From the NCBI GenBank assembly GCA_963752475.1, contig CAVVYR010000007.1:32001-96000 (forward strand): DNA of 64,000 bases, read 5' to 3'. This document shows, piece after piece, positions 201 to 18,369 of the stretch (positions within the stretch are counted from its first letter, which is position 1; every line of letters starts with the position of its first letter). The notes beneath the pieces are model-generated. The model was not told the origin of the DNA, ran no database searches, and saw only the letters and a list, made by a program, of their open reading frames with translations. This DNA is from an uncultured Chloroflexia bacterium (GTDB lineage: Bacteria > Chloroflexota > Limnocylindria > Limnocylindrales > CSP1-4). Made by a program: the position numbers and the translations under genes.

Positions 201-1694
201 TCAGACGCCTTTGACGACCTCCATCCGGCCTTCCTTGGCGGCCGCGGCGAAGGCCTCGTAGTCCTGCTTGTTCTGATCGGCGTAGGCCACTGCGAACGAG
301 CCCATGGCCTTGTCGAACGCCTCGCTCTTGCCCAGATAGCCGGAGATGGCAGTGGCGCCACCCGATCGAGCGTGTGCACGGGCGAGAGCCTCCGCACAGA
401 CCTCGACGTAGTTGCTCAGATGCCGTTCGTCCATCTTTCCGATGTTTGCCGAAGCCTTGTAGTCGTTGAGCTGACGCACGTAGAAGTCCATCTTCTGTCG
501 CTTGCTGGTGCCGCTGGCGAAGCCCAGGAAGGTGTCGCTCGAGGCCTGCATCAGGCGTTGTCCGAAGACGACACGCGCGCCCTGCTGCTTGAAGATGTCG
601 CTGATGGTGTAGCGCTCGAGCACCGAATCGTCAGCTTCCTTCAGCTGCAGGAAGAGCGCGTCGCCGTGACGCGTGCCGATGAGCAGCAGCACGAACGCCT
701 GCGTGCCGACCGACCCGACCCCGACCACCTTGCGCGCGAAGTCGACCACCTTGTAGTGGTGCATCAGCGGCAGCAGGTGCTTGGGCAGTGAGTCGAGGTA
801 CTGCCTGTAGAAGTCACCCAGTCGCTTGCGCAGCTCGGGCGTGACGTGGGCTCGCTCGATGAGTGGCGGCTCGTCCTTGATCCGCCACTGGCCATCCACG
901 CGCTCTGCGAGGCGATCGAGGGCACCCGTATTGGTCTTGCGTTGCGCCTTCGCCTGCGTCTTCTTGGCGGTCTTGATATCGGACTTGGAAGCGGACTCGC
1001 GGGCCGCCTCCAGGCGATCTCGAACGTCGACATGCGAATACCAGACGTCGAGGAAGTTCATGCGTGAAAGCGCGCGCATCTGCTGGCGATAGCGTGAGGC
1101 GGCATGCTGGGCGATGGCACGGCTGGCCTTGCGTGGAATGCCGTTGTCATCGCTGGCCACGACGATGCTGGCGGCCAAGCGCATGACATCCCACTCGAAT
1201 GGTGCCGGGTGGGATTCATCGAAGTCGTTGACGTCGAAGGCCGCCGTTCGCTCAGGCGTCGCGAACATGCCGAAGTTGGAGACGTGCGCATCCCCGCAGC
1301 ACTGCACGTAGATGCCGCTCGATGGTGTCCGAGCCAGGTCCGCAGCCATGACCAGGGCTCCGCCGCGGTAGAAGCTGAAGGGAGAGGCCAGCATGCGGCC
1401 GTGGCGGATAGGGACCAGGCTTTGGACCCGGTTCGCTGATTGCTCGAGGATCAGGGCGACCGGATCAGGGCGATCTGCTGCTGGGGCCCAGTCGCGCTGC
1501 GTGGAGCGCGGGACCTCGTTGCGGATGGCCGCACCGGCGGCGGCCGTCTCCTTGGGCGTGTCGCCCTCGACCGTTCGCCTGGGCGCGCGAGGGGGCTTTG
1601 GATCAGCCCCTGGCATGCTCTTGCTGGTCACCTGGGCCGTAGCGGAGCCGGAGCTGACCGCCTTGCTGCCCTTTCCATCTCGATCTCCGGACAT
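201..1694 (-). CDS. DUF2252 family protein (kinase-like fold)
   Basis: Motifs RHGRMLASPFSFYRGGA, CGDAHVSNFG, FDVNDFDE, KVVGVGSVGT, LQLKEA, FYVRQL, LARAHARSG. Confidence 0.92.
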   Translation of the reverse strand: MSGDRDGKGSKAVSSGSATAQVTSKSMPGADPKPPRAPRRTVEGDTPKETAAAGAAIRNEVPRSTQRDWAPAADRPDPVALILEQSANRVQSLVPIRHGRMLASPFSFYRGGALVMAADLARTPSSGIYVQCCGDAHVSNFGMFATPERTAAFDVNDFDESHPAPFEWDVMRLAASIVVASDDNGIPRKASRAIAQHAASRYRQQMRALSRMNFLDVWYSHVDVRDRLEAARESASKSDIKTAKKTQAKAQRKTNTGALDRLAERVDGQWRIKDEPPLIERAHVTPELRKRLGDFYRQYLDSLPKHLLPLMHHYKVVDFARKVVGVGSVGTQAFVLLLIGTRHGDALFLQLKEADDSVLERYTISDIFKQQGARVVFGQRLMQASSDTFLGFASGTSKRQKMDFYVRQLNDYKASANIGKMDERHLSNYVEVCAEALARAHARSGGATAISGYLGKSEAFDKAMGSFAVAYADQNKQDYEAFAAAAKEGRMEVVKGV

Positions 1695-14158: not shown

Positions 14159-15406
14159 TCACGTATCGGACTCCTGGTGGACGACCTCTGGGCCCGCAGC
14201 GAGGCGGTCTCCACAGACGACGTAGAGTGCCCCACGACCACTGACGATCCACGCCAAGCCATCCGGACCGACGCGGAGGTCAAGGGCGCCCCGTCCGGAA
14301 TCGGGGATCTTGACACGGTAGAAGTCGGCGCCGTCGTAGACGTGCAGGCCGATGCCATAGACCGAGAACCAGACCCGGCCATCAGGGTCGACCGTGATGA
14401 TGTTCGGCGCAGTGGGATCCCAACCGGTCCAGACGTCAAGCCTCCCTTGCGGCATCCCTTGTTCCGGGCCGATGGCCGACCATGTGCCCTCGTCGTACCG
14501 CAGGAGCACGTACTCACCTGGCCGGTTGTCGTGAAGCCTGCGATCCGCGATCGCCCAGAGCGATCCATCCGGGCCGACCGAGAGTCCGAGCACCCTGGGT
14601 ACCTCGGCGGTTCCGATCTCGTCGCCACTCCAGCCTGCTTCGTCGTACGTGGCGATACCGCCGGGGCGGTATCCACGATCGATGCCCAGCCATACTCGCC
14701 CGTCGGTCGTGCGCGCGAAGTCGTAGTGACCCGCACCGCCGGCGAGGGGCTCCTCGAGACCGACCGACTCGGAGGACACCCAGGCTTCCCCCTCCAGCTT
14801 GACGATTTCACTCGTTCGATCCCGGGAACGTGTGACACGCCACACGGAACCATCGTCCAGCGTTCCTACCGAGTGCCCGGCGCTGCGCATGCCACCCGAA
14901 CGATCGACCCAACGTCCATCCTCGGCCACCACGGTCGAGCCGCCATCCTCCACGGCCCAGAGCTCGCCCCATGGCGCGAGATGGAGGAAGCGGACGAACG
15001 AACGCCAGCCGTCGGTCCTCGGCACGATCGCGCCCGGCTCGCCAAGCTCGATGACTCGACGTCCCTGCGCGACCACGATGGTCCCGTCGCTGCCGACCTC
15101 GACCTCGCGGATCCGACCACCATCGAATCGGTGGCCGGCCTGATCGGCGATCACCTGCAGGACGCCAGGCCCGACGGCCTTGGTCACCAGCCCCTCCTGC
15201 ACCTCACATATCGGTGATGGGCTAGTGGCCGATGCGCCGGGGTCGATGCCGGCGACATCGGCCGGGGCAGCCAGCAGAGCGATGACCACCAGCGCGCTGC
15301 CCGTGAGGAGAGCGCGGCGTGGTGAGGCGGCGCGCGGTAGTCGTGATGCGAGACCGTGCCCAGGCAAAGGGAGAACAACGCGCACATCCGGTCGATGCGA
15401 CGTCAT
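14159..15406 (-). CDS. Exported beta-propeller-repeat protein (two-component-regulator-propeller-like repeats)
   Basis: Hydrophobic segment LLTGSALVVIALLAAPA; repeated [VI]..DG.[VL]W blades (GPDGSLWA, DPDGRVWF, GPDGLAWI). Confidence 0.75.
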   Translation of the reverse strand: MTSHRPDVRVVLPLPGHGLASRLPRAASPRRALLTGSALVVIALLAAPADVAGIDPGASATSPSPICEVQEGLVTKAVGPGVLQVIADQAGHRFDGGRIREVEVGSDGTIVVAQGRRVIELGEPGAIVPRTDGWRSFVRFLHLAPWGELWAVEDGGSTVVAEDGRWVDRSGGMRSAGHSVGTLDDGSVWRVTRSRDRTSEIVKLEGEAWVSSESVGLEEPLAGGAGHYDFARTTDGRVWLGIDRGYRPGGIATYDEAGWSGDEIGTAEVPRVLGLSVGPDGSLWAIADRRLHDNRPGEYVLLRYDEGTWSAIGPEQGMPQGRLDVWTGWDPTAPNIITVDPDGRVWFSVYGIGLHVYDGADFYRVKIPDSGRGALDLRVGPDGLAWIVSGRGALYVVCGDRLAAGPEVVHQESDT

Positions 15407-15433
15407 CGGCGTGAGACCTCGAGGCCAGGGCCG

Positions 15434-15487
15434 CGCTCAAGGCCCCACTGGTCGGAATGCGCACCGCTGGATCCAGAGGTAAATGTA
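15434..15487 (-). promoter_or_regulatory. Conserved promoter/leader motif copy A
   Basis: Minus strand TACATT-N16-GGTGCGCATTCCGACCAGTGGGGCCTTGAGCG, then GAGGT SD and ATG 15406. Confidence 0.8.
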
Positions 15488-15565
15488 GTCCCTGGTATCC
15501 GCGCATGCGGTCAACGAACCGTGGATGGCCGGTGTCGTTTCCGATATCTCCAGCGCCGCAGCGCG

Positions 15566-15754
15566 TCAGAAGCCCGGCGGTGACTCGATCACGAGCCACG
15601 CGAGCAAGGCCACGACGGCCGCCATCGCGATGGCCGCGATGAGCGCCGCGCGTCCGTTGCTGCCGGAATCATCATCGTGGTCGGGCTCGGGTTGGACTTC
15701 CCAGCGTGGGTCGTCCTCGAACTGGTCTAGCCGATGGTCAGTGCGCATGGTCAT
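15566..15754 (-). CDS. Small single-TM membrane protein, last gene of the PASTA operon
   Basis: Acidic N-terminus, TM AALIAAIAMAAVVALLAWLVI; ATGA overlap with upstream stop. Confidence 0.7.
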   Translation of the reverse strand: MTMRTDHRLDQFEDDPRWEVQPEPDHDDDSGSNGRAALIAAIAMAAVVALLAWLVIESPPGF

Positions 15755-16179
15755 CTGCCTCGCTTCTTCAAGATGCTCCTCGCTGGTGCGCCGAGCGGTC
15801 GCAGTCGGACGACGTGTGGCGAGAGCGCGCGTCTGCGAGCACCTCCTGATCGCTCATCCGCGTCATCCCTGGCGAGACGCACGGCTTGAGCGTCGGGGGC
15901 CTCCGTCGGCGCCGACGAGCGAGATGGTGCTTCCGCCACGAGAACGTGGATCCGCCAGAGCTGCTTCAGGTGTGTCCCGGGGGAAGGCGATTGCGCGACG
16001 ATGACGCCCCAGGGTTCACGAGTGCGGACGACGCGCGTCGCGTTGACGCTGGTGCCGGCCCATGCCGCCGCCGCGAGCGCGTCGGCGAGGCCAAGCCCGA
16101 TCAGGTCAGGGACGACCGTCGTCGTGGCCGGCGCCGGTGCGGCTGGAGCCCTGCTCGTGTCGTGCGCGAGCTCAGTCAC
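15751..16179 (-). CDS. PASTA-domain protein (one domain, no signal peptide or TM)
   Basis: VVPDLIGLGLADA...GVIVAQSPSPGT.L.....IHVLV; GTG start overlaps upstream TGA. Confidence 0.75.
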   Translation of the reverse strand: MTELAHDTSRAPAAPAPATTTVVPDLIGLGLADALAAAAWAGTSVNATRVVRTREPWGVIVAQSPSPGTHLKQLWRIHVLVAEAPSRSSAPTEAPDAQAVRLARDDADERSGGARRRALSPHVVRLRPLGAPARSILKKRGR

Positions 16180-16730
16180 TTGCCGATCGATCTGACGCGG
16201 TCGATCGACGACGGGTTCTTCTCTGCGAGTCGCGCCAGGGTCAGCGCCACGACCGACCCGTCCGTGAGCAGCGTGCCTGCAGACGGGTGAGTCGACACGA
16301 TGTGGCCAGCCGGCACGCTCCTCGACGCACGCCGCCCCTTGACCAGCGGCACGAAGCCCAGCCAACACAGCAGCTCGAGCGCGGCTTCGAGCGGCAGCCC
16401 CCGGACGTCCGGGACCGGTGCGAGCGGCCGACCGGAGACGATGACGCGGATCCTCCCGCCTCGCCGTACACGCGTGCCGGCTTCAGGTCGCTGGTCGACC
16501 ACCAAGCCCCATGGCCCGATCGTGGTCTCCCACACCGAGACGGACAGCCGAACGCCAGCCATCCTGGCCGCGGCGTGTGCTTCGAGTGCTGGAAGGCCAA
16601 CGAGATCCGGAGCGAGGCACGGCACACGTCCCGGCGAGTCGGTCTGACGGGCGGGGAGCTCCAGCGCGGGACCGGGGGAGAGTCCCTCGTCCGCCGGGCC
16701 CGGGATGAAGATGCGGTCGCCGGTGATCAC
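16176..16730 (-). CDS. PASTA-domain protein (two domains, no signal peptide or TM)
   Basis: APDLVGL...VVDQRPEAGTRV..GGRIRVIVS and VPDVRGLPLEAA...SVPAGHIVSTHPSAGT.L..GS.VALT. Confidence 0.85.
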   Translation of the reverse strand: MITGDRIFIPGPADEGLSPGPALELPARQTDSPGRVPCLAPDLVGLPALEAHAAARMAGVRLSVSVWETTIGPWGLVVDQRPEAGTRVRRGGRIRVIVSGRPLAPVPDVRGLPLEAALELLCWLGFVPLVKGRRASRSVPAGHIVSTHPSAGTLLTDGSVVALTLARLAEKNPSSIDRVRSIGK

Positions 16731-17008
16731 GGGTGCCGTGGGCGACCGGATCGCCGCAAGGCCGCATCGAGTGCTCTTCGCATCCGTGTTCGATCCGATG
16801 GGGATCGCCCGTAGACGGCGGGGACGTCGACAGGCGATGTGGTCGCCGCGCTGGTGAGACCCGGGACGGGGACCTCTCCAGCCCGGCGTCGCTCAGCCGC
16901 CGCCCTCGCCTCCAGGCGTCGCACGGCACGAGATCGCGTCGCAGACGCATCGCGACCTCCCTCGACCGGTGCCTGCGGGCTGCTGGGTGGAAGTTGGCCG
17001 CCGCTCAC
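16727..17008 (-). CDS. Hypothetical Arg/Ala/Pro-rich protein within the PASTA operon
   Basis: Exactly fills the gap with 4-bp GTGA overlaps at both ends; no recognisable domain. Confidence 0.5.
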   Translation of the reverse strand: MSGGQLPPSSPQAPVEGGRDASATRSRAVRRLEARAAAERRRAGEVPVPGLTSAATTSPVDVPAVYGRSPSDRTRMRRALDAALRRSGRPRHP

Positions 17009-17445
17009 GCCAGTGTCTCCATGGGTCGGCCAGAGCGGAAGAGCGTATCGACGACATCGTGGTCGACATAGGCACCGGGCTTCGTGCGCTTGCGTGGCTC
17101 GCCCGGAAGCACCTCATAGTCGATGCGAGATCCGGCCGAGACCAACGACCCGACTCGAGGGTTCGTCCGGATGACGACCTCGGAGCGACCAGACACCGGT
17201 CGCGGTGCCGGGTCGCGGCGACCTGGCACGAGTCCCGCAGCAACGAAGTCCGCACGGGCCTCACTCTCGGTGCTCAGCACCACGTCGGGGACGCGGACGT
17301 GCGAGCGGGCGGCGACGCCGCGCGTGACCGTGTCGTCGTCGGCGTTCACTCCACCAGCTGAACCGAGGCTCGCATCGCCTGTCATGGGGATGGGTTCGGC
17401 GGGTGCGCCGAACAAGACAGACACATCAACCCGATGCGTCGCCAT
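17005..17445 (-). CDS. PASTA-domain protein (one domain)
   Basis: VRVPDVV..TESEARA...AGL...VVIRTNPRVGSLVSAGSRIDYEV. Confidence 0.75.
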   Translation of the reverse strand: MATHRVDVSVLFGAPAEPIPMTGDASLGSAGGVNADDDTVTRGVAARSHVRVPDVVLSTESEARADFVAAGLVPGRRDPAPRPVSGRSEVVIRTNPRVGSLVSAGSRIDYEVLPGEPRKRTKPGAYVDHDVVDTLFRSGRPMETLA

Positions 17446-17472
17446 CAGCCGGAACCTCGAACATCGTGGTGT

Positions 17473-17526
17473 CGCTCAAGGCCCCAGGTGGTCGGAGTGC
17501 GCACCGCGTCTTCGCGCCGGAATGTA
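17473..17526 (-). promoter_or_regulatory. Conserved promoter/leader motif copy B
   Basis: Minus strand TACATT-N15-GGTGCGCACTCCGACCACCTGGGGCCTTGAGCG, then GAGGT SD and ATG 17445. Confidence 0.8.
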
Positions 17527-17646
17527 CACCCGGCGGTGGCCCGCGGATGCGTAACGATGCGTGTCGACTCGATTGCGGAACCTTAACCAACCGAGGACCC
17601 GCCGGCTCGTCGTCTCCTGAGGTCCCCGTGGGTTCCGATTTGGGTA

Positions 17647-17722
17647 TTGCGTTCCTCTGTCGAAGGTCGTACATTCCCGCGCACGATCGTGGTGCGCAGT
17701 CCGACCGCAGTGGCCTTGAGCG
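17647..17722 (+). promoter_or_regulatory. Sigma70-like promoter plus conserved leader motif copy C
   Basis: TTGCGT-N17-TACATT-N15-GGTGCGCAGTCCGACCGCAGTGGCCTTGAGCG, then GAGGT SD and ATG 17749. Confidence 0.8.
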
Positions 17723-17748
17723 CCACCACGACGATGAGGTCACGGCCG

Positions 17749-18369
17749 ATGTGGCGCACCTTCTCCACCGCACATGGTGGCTGTTTCCCCCTGCACGGAG
17801 ACCCTGGACCTGCGTTCCCCGCCACTCATCATCACGGGACGCGCGAGGAGTCGTTGAGCACACGGCCCACCCTCGGGTCGGTGACGGTTCCGGACCTCGT
17901 CGGCATGTCATCGCAGGATGCTCGACGCACGGCGCGATTGAGTGAGCTCGGTCTGTTCCTCGAGGAGAAGCCTGCCGACTCCGGCCTTCGCGGTCGTGTG
18001 ATCCGGCAGGACCCCGAACCGGGTACCCTCGCGCGACCCGGAGACGTCATCGACGCCCAGGTCGGAGGGAGGCCGGGAGTGGCCGTTCCCGATGTGCGCG
18101 GAGCTGACGAGCAGGACGCGCTGGTGTCGCTGCGCACGGCCGGTCTGACCCCGACTCGGCGTGTCGTACGACGGTCCAGCTCCGTCGCGCCAGGCCTCGT
18201 GATCCGTACTCGCCCCCGCGCCGGCACCGAGGTCCCGGTCGGGACCCGTGTCAGCTACGTGATCGCATCCGCGGCGCGCGAACGGGCATCCGCGAAGCGA
18301 GCGGCCAGGCGGTCACGGGTGCGATGGATCCCCGATGGGGCCTTCCTCTCCATGCCGGACCGGGAGTGA
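17749..18369 (+). CDS. PASTA-domain protein (two domains; alternative TTG start at 17854)
   Basis: VTVPDLVGMSSQDARR...GRVIRQDPEPGT and VAVPDVRG...SSVAPGLVIRTRPRAGTEVPVGTRVSYVI. Confidence 0.88.
   Translation: MWRTFSTAHGGCFPLHGDPGPAFPATHHHGTREESLSTRPTLGSVTVPDLVGMSSQDARRTARLSELGLFLEEKPADSGLRGRVIRQDPEPGTLARPGDVIDAQVGGRPGVAVPDVRGADEQDALVSLRTAGLTPTRRVVRRSSSVAPGLVIRTRPRAGTEVPVGTRVSYVIASAARERASAKRAARRSRVRWIPDGAFLSMPDRE

Follow-up and report, generated by a model that had tools for sequence, protein, structure and literature searches.

Riboswitches of the SAM-II, SAM-V and preQ1-II classes fold as H-type pseudoknots that sequester the Shine-Dalgarno (SD) sequence. Here, we describe a small leader RNA with a candidate SD-occluding helix of its own, three copies of which (A, B and C) lie within a 64,000-nucleotide stretch of high-GC DNA from an uncultured Chloroflexota bacterium (contig CAVVYR010000007.1 of assembly GCA_963752475.1; hereafter, the window). 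Copies A and B are encoded on the minus strand and copy C on the plus strand. The leader is a conserved structured RNA that is absent from Rfam and, among the genomes searched, so far confined to one genus. Its two helices are a closing stem, P1, and a second helix, P2, in which a conserved segment of the P1 loop would pair with the SD. With moderate confidence, we propose that it acts as a genus-restricted, SD-occluding translational leader, built as a P1/P2 switch or pseudoknot and governed by a putative trans-acting factor.

A leader family in one Chloroflexota genus

Copy C spans 17682-17751 (+), copy B runs on the minus strand from about 17516 to 17443 with its ATG at 17445-17443, and copy A runs on the same strand from about 15476 to 15404 with its ATG at 15406-15404. 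The sequence strings on which the original prediction of a switch-like leader was built are all found in A, B and C where it placed them. When aligned, the three copies share the hexamer TACATT, followed some 15 nucleotides (nt) later by GGUGCGCA-N-UCCGACC, a short variable spacer, GGCCUUGAGCG, a variable stretch, GAGGU and the ATG. A strict pattern for this core retrieves only A, B and C from the genome that carries the window, and a pattern tolerating R at the variable core base adds a fourth copy (D) on a different contig. Among these same-genome paralogues the core blocks are identical, while flanks and coding regions are unalignable.

The family comprises 38 leaders, 22 of them in 16 of the 49 genomes of one uncultured Chloroflexota genus and 16 on metagenome contigs. 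A covariance model (R1) built from 17 copies identifies the 22 genomic instances at 49-95 bits and, in addition, four divergent copies at 18-33 bits; 13 of the 49 genomes hold a total of 18 matches to the R-tolerant pattern, one of them (L047) a likely chance match. In metagenomes, a stricter pattern picked out 27 stretches, 13 holding 14 true copies and 14 matching by chance, and R1 recovered two more copies from those contigs, which completes the alignment of 38 (A6). Beyond the genus, no credible leader is found in samples of 145 other genomes of the family and 150 genomes of the class from five families, each searched with strict filters. R1 does match twice in the family sample (30.9 and 30.1 bits) and once in the class sample (37.4 bits); all three matches lack the -10 box and the core blocks and were rejected. 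Likewise, the pattern TCCGACC..GGCCTTGAG matches 14 of 200 family genomes, in every case within coding-like sequence lacking the upstream block. A scan of genome contigs with too loose a pattern gave at least 117 stretches; among the matches listed, six passed the filter and four were true copies, all known already from the genus, and the scan carries no information on absence elsewhere. Rfam 15 gives no match across the whole window at the gathering score and, at E values up to 10 over positions 15200-18000, just two irrelevant matches elsewhere and none near a leader. Listings from literature searches return nothing that ties Limnocylindria to riboswitches or the term "PASTA domain" to an RNA motif in Chloroflexi.

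The family holds a fixed geometry from promoter to start codon. The -10-like hexamer, usually preceded by G, reads TACATT in 35 of the 38 leaders and carries one mismatch in the other 3, and its end lies 23-25 nt ahead of UCCG in 35. From UCCGRCC to UGAGCG the distance is 10-12 nt, and from UGAGCG to GAGG it is 12-16 nt. GAGG and a start codon (ATG in 36, GTG in 2) are present in all 38, again 12-16 nt apart, and the closing stem stands just ahead of the SD, as first noticed in A, B and C. A consensus scan finds no sigma-70-type -35/-10 pair with 16-18 nt spacing; because only the -10-like TACATT is conserved, the -35 element appears to be dispensable or different. One low-depth RNA-library contig covers 17288-17516, taking in the 5' portion of the B gene together with the entire B leader, and ends 5 nt downstream of the B hexamer, a weak hint that the B transcript begins at about 17516. 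The RNA runs were available as contigs only, so uncovered stretches carry no weight, and neither does a further contig (X4) beginning just after the C start codon.

The closing stem and a proposed anti-SD helix

P1 consists of an inner helix of 7-8 base pairs (bp) with one bulge, a position that is usually mismatched and three outer bp. It closes a loop of about 22-25 nt with two invariant blocks, A-N-UCCGRCC and GGCCUUGAGCG, and the roughly 18 invariant loop bases persist among paralogues despite drift in their stems and flanks. Paired by hand, the stem has 11 bp and one bulged C in copy C; 9 bp, a C.A mismatch and a bulged A in copy B; and about 10-11 bp, with either a bulge or a mismatch, in copy A. 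That these stems covary had been proposed from the three copies, where the agreement could have been chance; in the family, a data set twelve times as large, the proposal holds. On A6, 80.6% of P1 cells pair; displacing the 3' partner by 1-3 columns lowers this figure to 20-48%. The covariation score reaches 0.155 (shuffles, 0.120 ± 0.011; 2/500), and 16 cells are changed on both sides (shuffles, 8.6; 2/500). Compensatory changes include GC to CG at columns 20/57 (3 copies) and 19/58 (1 copy) and, by hand, GC to AU in two copies and GC to CG in one at column 23. Columns 15/63 take five pair types, and columns 18/60, mismatched in 28 of the 38 leaders, form C-G in 6 copies and U-A in 4 C-type copies. 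One-sided wobble changes are also common, such as C-G to U.G at columns 26/51 (7 copies) and U-A to U.G at columns 21/56 (5 copies).

An alignment-free test compares the duplex energy of each copy's own P1 arms with that of arms exchanged between copies. Own and swapped arms average -14.02 and -12.72 kcal/mol, respectively, for 37 copies (one dropped for a truncated coding region; 0/5000 permutations), -14.38 and -12.79 kcal/mol for 25 cluster representatives (1/5000), and -14.05 and -12.22 kcal/mol for 13 cluster representatives (13/5000), permutation counts that overstate independence given the kinship of the sequences. Against random genomic partners the P1 arms score z -1.85, with the median copy matched by 4.7% of random partners, and the P1 hairpin averages -18.0 kcal/mol over the 38 copies. 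On balance, P1 is real, and its covariation is only moderate. A covarying stem that encloses invariant unpaired bases is what a structured aptamer would present, and ligand binding would be a candidate property.

Within the P1 loop, the block GGCCUUG, together with the preceding G-run, is complementary to the extended SD, YGAGGUY, and the resulting helix P2 has 6-15 bp and emerges as the dominant one when complete leaders are folded. In copy A, GUGGGGCCUUGAG pairs with CUCGAGGUCUCAC over 13 bp in the fold of the full leader; P2 has about 15 bp in copy B, and in copy C GUGGCCUU pairs with GAGGUCAC over 8 bp. On A6, 81.8% of P2 cells pair, versus 35-57% when slid, and the core CCUU/GAGG pairs in 35-38 of the 38 leaders. 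At the two positions that follow GAGGU (columns 75 and 76), pyrimidines predominate, and standard pairing with the G-run is seen in 34 and 31 of the 38 leaders, respectively, a flanking complementarity that would exceed the needs of ribosome pairing. P2 scores z -1.73 against random genomic partners, averages -16.6 kcal/mol in isolation (range -8.9 to -25.2), and is present in the minimum-free-energy fold at a probability of at least 0.9 in 11 of 22 leaders. Because its covariation is not significant, the support for P2 is confined to conserved complementarity. A conserved segment complementary to the SD and placed to pair with it is nevertheless what an SD-occluding leader would be expected to carry, and P2, which the original prediction overlooked, is the credible competitor or partner of the closing stem.

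Because P2 draws its 5' strand from the P1 loop and its 3' strand from downstream of P1, the two helices cross. With the full 11-bp P1 formed, the linker to the SD strand is 2-7 nt; with the inner 7-8 bp only, it is about 7-11 nt. Judged by the geometry of known pseudoknots, the full P1 and P2 look mutually exclusive, the linker being too short to cross P1, and coexistence of the inner P1 with P2 as an H-type pseudoknot is plausible. The P1 helix is interrupted beyond its inner 7-8 bp in 28 of the 38 copies. Nested-fold ensembles forced to contain P1 or P2 are isoenergetic on average (difference +0.8 kcal/mol).

These features lead us to propose the following mechanism. The element would be a promoter-proximal, structured 5' untranslated leader, about 75 nt long when measured from the probable start of the transcript to the AUG, and would act in cis on translation. 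Loop block 2, GGCCUUGAGCG, would serve as an anti-SD sequence, and formation of P2 would bury the ribosome-binding site. The leader might alternate between P1 with the SD free and P2 with the SD hidden, or the inner P1 and P2 might combine as an H-type pseudoknot in which the SD is hidden. The invariant loop bases needed by neither helix (A-N-UCCGRCC and UGA) would most likely form the surface at which a trans factor, either a small ligand or a protein, makes contact and sets the balance. We infer that P2 forms in vivo, that regulation runs in this direction and that a trigger exists.

Genes and sequence variants around the leaders

The elements of the three copies and the genes behind them are collected in Table 1. 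Several of the genes that follow the leader are cell-wall-sensor-like (PASTA) genes. The B and C leaders share one divergent promoter region, a layout that recurs in one other genome (G204) and on three metagenome contigs.

Table 1. Leader elements and downstream genes of copies C, B and A, in window coordinates.
Copy	Feature	Position	Strand	Remark
C	-10-like hexamer TACATT	17670..17675	+	read from sequence
C	P1 5' strand UCGUGGUGCGC	17687..17697	+	
C	invariant loop block 1, A-N-UCCGRCC	17698..17706	+	invariant alignment columns
C	anti-SD, P2 5' strand GUGGCCUUG	17710..17718	+	within invariant block 2, GGCCUUGAGCG
C	P1 3' strand GCGCCACCACGA	17720..17731	+	one C bulged
C	SD GAGG and flank, P2 3' strand GAGGUCAC	17736..17743	+	
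C	downstream gene, 206 amino acids (aa), two PASTA domains	17749..18369	+	Pfam PF03793, E 2.1e-24
B	-10-like hexamer TACATT	17521..17526	-	read from sequence
B	P1 5' strand CGCGGUGCGC	17499..17508	-	
B	anti-SD, P2 5' strand CUGGGGCCUUGAG	17475..17487	-	
B	P1 3' strand GCGACACCACG	17465..17475	-	
B	SD region, P2 3' strand UCGAGGUUCCGG	17449..17460	-	
B	downstream gene, 146 aa, one PASTA domain	17005..17445	-	
B	PASTA open reading frames farther along the same strand, behind the copy B gene	16730..16176 and 16368..15751	-	
A	-10-like hexamer TACATT	15482..15487	-	read from sequence
A	P1 5' strand CCAGCGGUGCGC	15459..15470	-	
A	anti-SD, P2 5' strand GUGGGGCCUUGAG	15436..15448	-	13-bp helix in minimum-free-energy fold
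A	P1 3' strand GCGCGGCCCUGG	15425..15436	-	
A	SD region, P2 3' strand CUCGAGGUCUCAC	15411..15423	-	
A	downstream gene, 415 aa	14159..15406	-	RR-containing Tat-like hydrophobic segment after shared N-terminal module

To survey the neighbours, the 80 longest of 210 open reading frames (ORFs) of at least 110 aa from 17 loci (in other genomes and on the other contig of the same genome) were scanned against Pfam. At least one PASTA ORF lies within 1.5 kb of the leader in 16 of the 17 loci, typically with one such gene divergent and another lying behind a small first gene. The genus shows a great expansion of PASTA repeats, with reading frames of up to about 3800 aa built from tandem units, each about 130 aa long and matching a two-PASTA query (for example G152:C6:335700-344744 and G068:C1:782374-788403) and 31 matches in the genome of the window alone.

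The first gene behind the leader often encodes 59-116 aa with an N-terminal M-x-T-H-R-x-D-V, a central TEW-x-ADLS and a C-terminal YVDFD-like motif. Members of this small-protein family are found at L086:1580-1837 (own genome, other contig), L054:1289-1510, L067:1582-1827, L068:1578-1823 and L078:1580-1816. The small downstream protein matches no Pfam family and gives no usable match in the ESM Atlas; its C-terminal motif, G-Y/F-VD-F/Y-D-x-x-D-S-x-H, also ends the PASTA protein of copy B (AYVDHDVVD). The body of gene A (14159-15406, -) gives weak Reg_prop/Vgb_lyase beta-propeller matches, and a similar propeller ORF follows the leader gene in locus L075.

Proteins with quite different bodies, whether PASTA proteins, a putative Tat-signal beta-propeller protein or small proteins of no known family, have their first ten or so codons (M-x-T-H-R-x-D-V) in common, at 17445-17411 (-), at 15406-15372 (-) and in the homologues in L053-L068. 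Among 23 copies with this shared N-terminus, the His codon is CAU in all 23 and the Asp codon mostly GAU; four genes of the window use CAU 7 and CAC 25 times, and GAU 36 and GAC 82 times. The early-coding segment GACGCAUC can pair with GAUGUGUC at -8 to -14 kcal/mol, and this hairpin with its U-rich tail is flagged as terminator-like at 17440-17420. The regulatory RNA may extend into the coding region. The early-coding hairpin (P5) was rejected: it is present but devoid of covariation (1345/5000). Also rejected was P4, a long-range pairing of the P1 5' strand with codons 3-6 that many minimum-free-energy folds contain: it does no better than random partners (z -0.61) and lacks covariation (691/5000), and changes compensated in P1 (G032, G204m, D/G210) are uncompensated in P4. 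By eye, UCCGRCC shows no consistent complementarity to the GCCGAUG region or to the early coding region. With 44 occurrences in the genome, the 11-mer GGCCTTGAGCG resembles a common coding word and is useless in a search for an antisense partner.

Several copies depart from the common plan. The fourth copy of the genome, outside the window at G000:C8:88314-88402 (+; 67.8 bits), differs at one P1 pair (C-G in place of G-C) and lies opposite a divergent two-PASTA gene; its loop has a possible inner GGCCGA/UUGGCC hairpin that would tie up the anti-SD. In L063:1501-1588 (-) and L206:579-666 (+), the -10-like box lies just 16 nt ahead of UCCG, and transcription from about 7 nt past the box would yield an RNA with the inner part of P1 only. 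The divergent subclass (L080:1501-1589 (+), L082:1501-1587 (-), and L079:1501-1587 (+) and 1240-1324 (-)) carries GGUACGYAUUYCGAUYC and UGAGCGUCGCCACG. In L080, the CCUU anti-SD is displaced 7 nt upstream and can pair locally with an SD-mimicking GGGUCU stretch (CAGACC/GGUCUG), an arrangement that suggests a three-part switch.

Competing explanations and comparison with known systems

Several results weigh against the SD-occluding switch or pseudoknot that we propose. For P1, the number of pairs with a double change is 4, not above shuffles (187/500; P2 likewise, 311/500), and the tool that does this counting may let related sequences beat shuffles without any structure. RNAalifold on the model-fitted alignment recovers only the inner 6 P1 pairs (energy -3.57, covariation term -0.41), and the single-sequence fold z-scores of the leaders are ordinary, from -0.3 to -1.6 with one at +1.3. 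P2 falls below a probability of 0.9 in 11 of 22 leaders and is near 0 in several. Its covariation is not significant in the shuffle control (16/500), and its arm swap gives 151/5000 with all copies but 933 and 773/5000 with cluster representatives. The P1/P2 energy difference has a standard deviation of 5.5 and ranges from -11 to +9 kcal/mol, lying within 3 kcal/mol in just 13 of the 38 leaders; judged by this scatter of modelled energies, fine tuning as a bistable switch is not apparent. The RNA-library contig, one fragment of low depth that comes from one study, might reflect DNA carry-over, and adjacency to PASTA genes is partly expected anyway in a genus so rich in PASTA repeats.

The scatter in P1/P2 energy difference and the putative status of the trigger would also suit a leader that is structured but constitutive. 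P1, starting within about 10 nt of the predicted transcript start, would then be a 5'-terminal hairpin against 5'-end-dependent decay and the anti-SD would fix a low translation rate, with no switch. A stabilising hairpin, however, needs no set of some 18 invariant loop bases, and we regard this explanation as unlikely.

A more speculative possibility, to which we assign a low probability, is that the leader represents an orphan riboswitch class of one genus, in which the P1-closed loop (A-N-UCCGRCC ... GGCCUUGAGCG) binds a small molecule linked to the cell envelope. The ligand might be, for example, a peptidoglycan precursor or turnover product, whose binding would decide whether the anti-SD covers the SD. 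The genes so co-regulated would be those for PASTA-domain proteins and for the small proteins of no known family, which share even their first ten codons. Sequence analysis does not separate a riboswitch from a protein-bound leader.

Control at the DNA level, by a transcription-factor operator just downstream of the -10 box with the pairings incidental, we consider improbable. The fixed position of the element relative to TACATT, the divergent promoter region shared by B and C and a loose dyad in the block pair (GCGC...GGCC/GGCC...GCGC) are all compatible with an operator, but the P1 arms compensate one another, and read on the opposite strand the 28 wobble cells (U.G or G.U) would turn into A.C mismatches. 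The spacer separating the blocks differs in length among copies (10-12 nt), orientation relative to the gene is constant and the distance to the SD is fixed. The same spacer, at 10, 11 or 12 nt, puts block 2 in different frames in B and C, and a leader peptide or upstream ORF was rejected. A transcription attenuator was rejected as well: none of the three leaders has a terminator-like hairpin with a U-tract between P1 and the AUG, the sole terminator-like site in 15300-17900 lies inside the B coding region, and control would therefore act on translation rather than by attenuation. Because of the compensations and wobbles, the variable spacer, the differing frames and the missing terminator, a sense-strand RNA acting on translation is favoured over an operator, an upstream ORF or an attenuator.

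The original prediction held that a local 5' hairpin competes for the 5' strand of the closing stem and that the start codon sits in a further hairpin, and it offered a riboswitch, a thermometer or a bound protein as the controlling agent. Translational control survives as the best reading of the leader; the opposition of closing stem and local 5' hairpin does not, and we hold this version of the model to be highly improbable. The hairpin strings do exist in A, B and C, and the local hairpin reaches -5.0 kcal/mol in B and -6.9 in C, but two of the three are palindromes with two central bases and can form at most 3 bp. Across the family, the local hairpin averages -2.3 kcal/mol against -18.0 for P1 and reaches -5 or lower in just 5 of the 38 copies. 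It shows no covariation (1763/5000), does no better than random genomic partners (z -0.8) and has no room in two copies, whose -10 box lies 16 nt from the core. The start-codon hairpin, present in A, B and C, likewise fails to covary (4409/5000), and where both of its arms are changed (G217b and G219) the changes are not compensatory. An RNA thermometer, with P2 melting as temperature rises, has in its favour several G.U pairs in the SD helix (for example at columns 44/74, 48/70 and 43/75), but P2, at a predicted mean of -16.6 and reaching -25 kcal/mol, would be far more stable than the SD helices typical of known thermometers such as ROSE and fourU, a thermometer does not require invariant unpaired loop bases, and we give this option very little credence.

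If our proposed SD-occluding leader is correct, it would be a compact addition to the families of SD-occluding regulators, in a phylum with few described cis-regulatory RNAs, and it would mark a co-regulated set of PASTA-domain and small proteins in a lineage of greatly expanded PASTA repeats. One genus, no isolate and moderate covariation bound what can be said here. The invariant loop would offer a concrete target for fishing out a ligand or protein, and a size of about 60 nt from P1 to SD would make in vitro probing and toeprinting cheap despite the uncultured organism.

Among known regulators, the c-di-AMP (ydaO) riboswitch of Actinobacteria also precedes cell-wall-related genes in high-GC bacteria, but its fold is different and much larger, and the leader described here has no Rfam match. 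Ribosomal-protein leaders and CsrA-type sites resemble it in placing a hairpin with invariant loop bases near the SD of several unlinked genes, a regulon-like arrangement. Unlike CsrA-type sites, the leader has no GGA-type motif in its loop, and no candidate RNA-binding protein was identified among the proteins scanned in the leader neighbourhoods. The differences from SAM-II, SAM-V and preQ1-II are that the leader is without similarity in Rfam, precedes genes for PASTA and small proteins rather than metabolic genes and, by familiar pseudoknot geometry, has a full P1 that with its linker of 2-7 nt looks too long to coexist with P2. Like these three riboswitches, it is small, has no terminator, keeps invariant unpaired bases in its hairpin loop and has a loop predicted to pair with a downstream SD strand.

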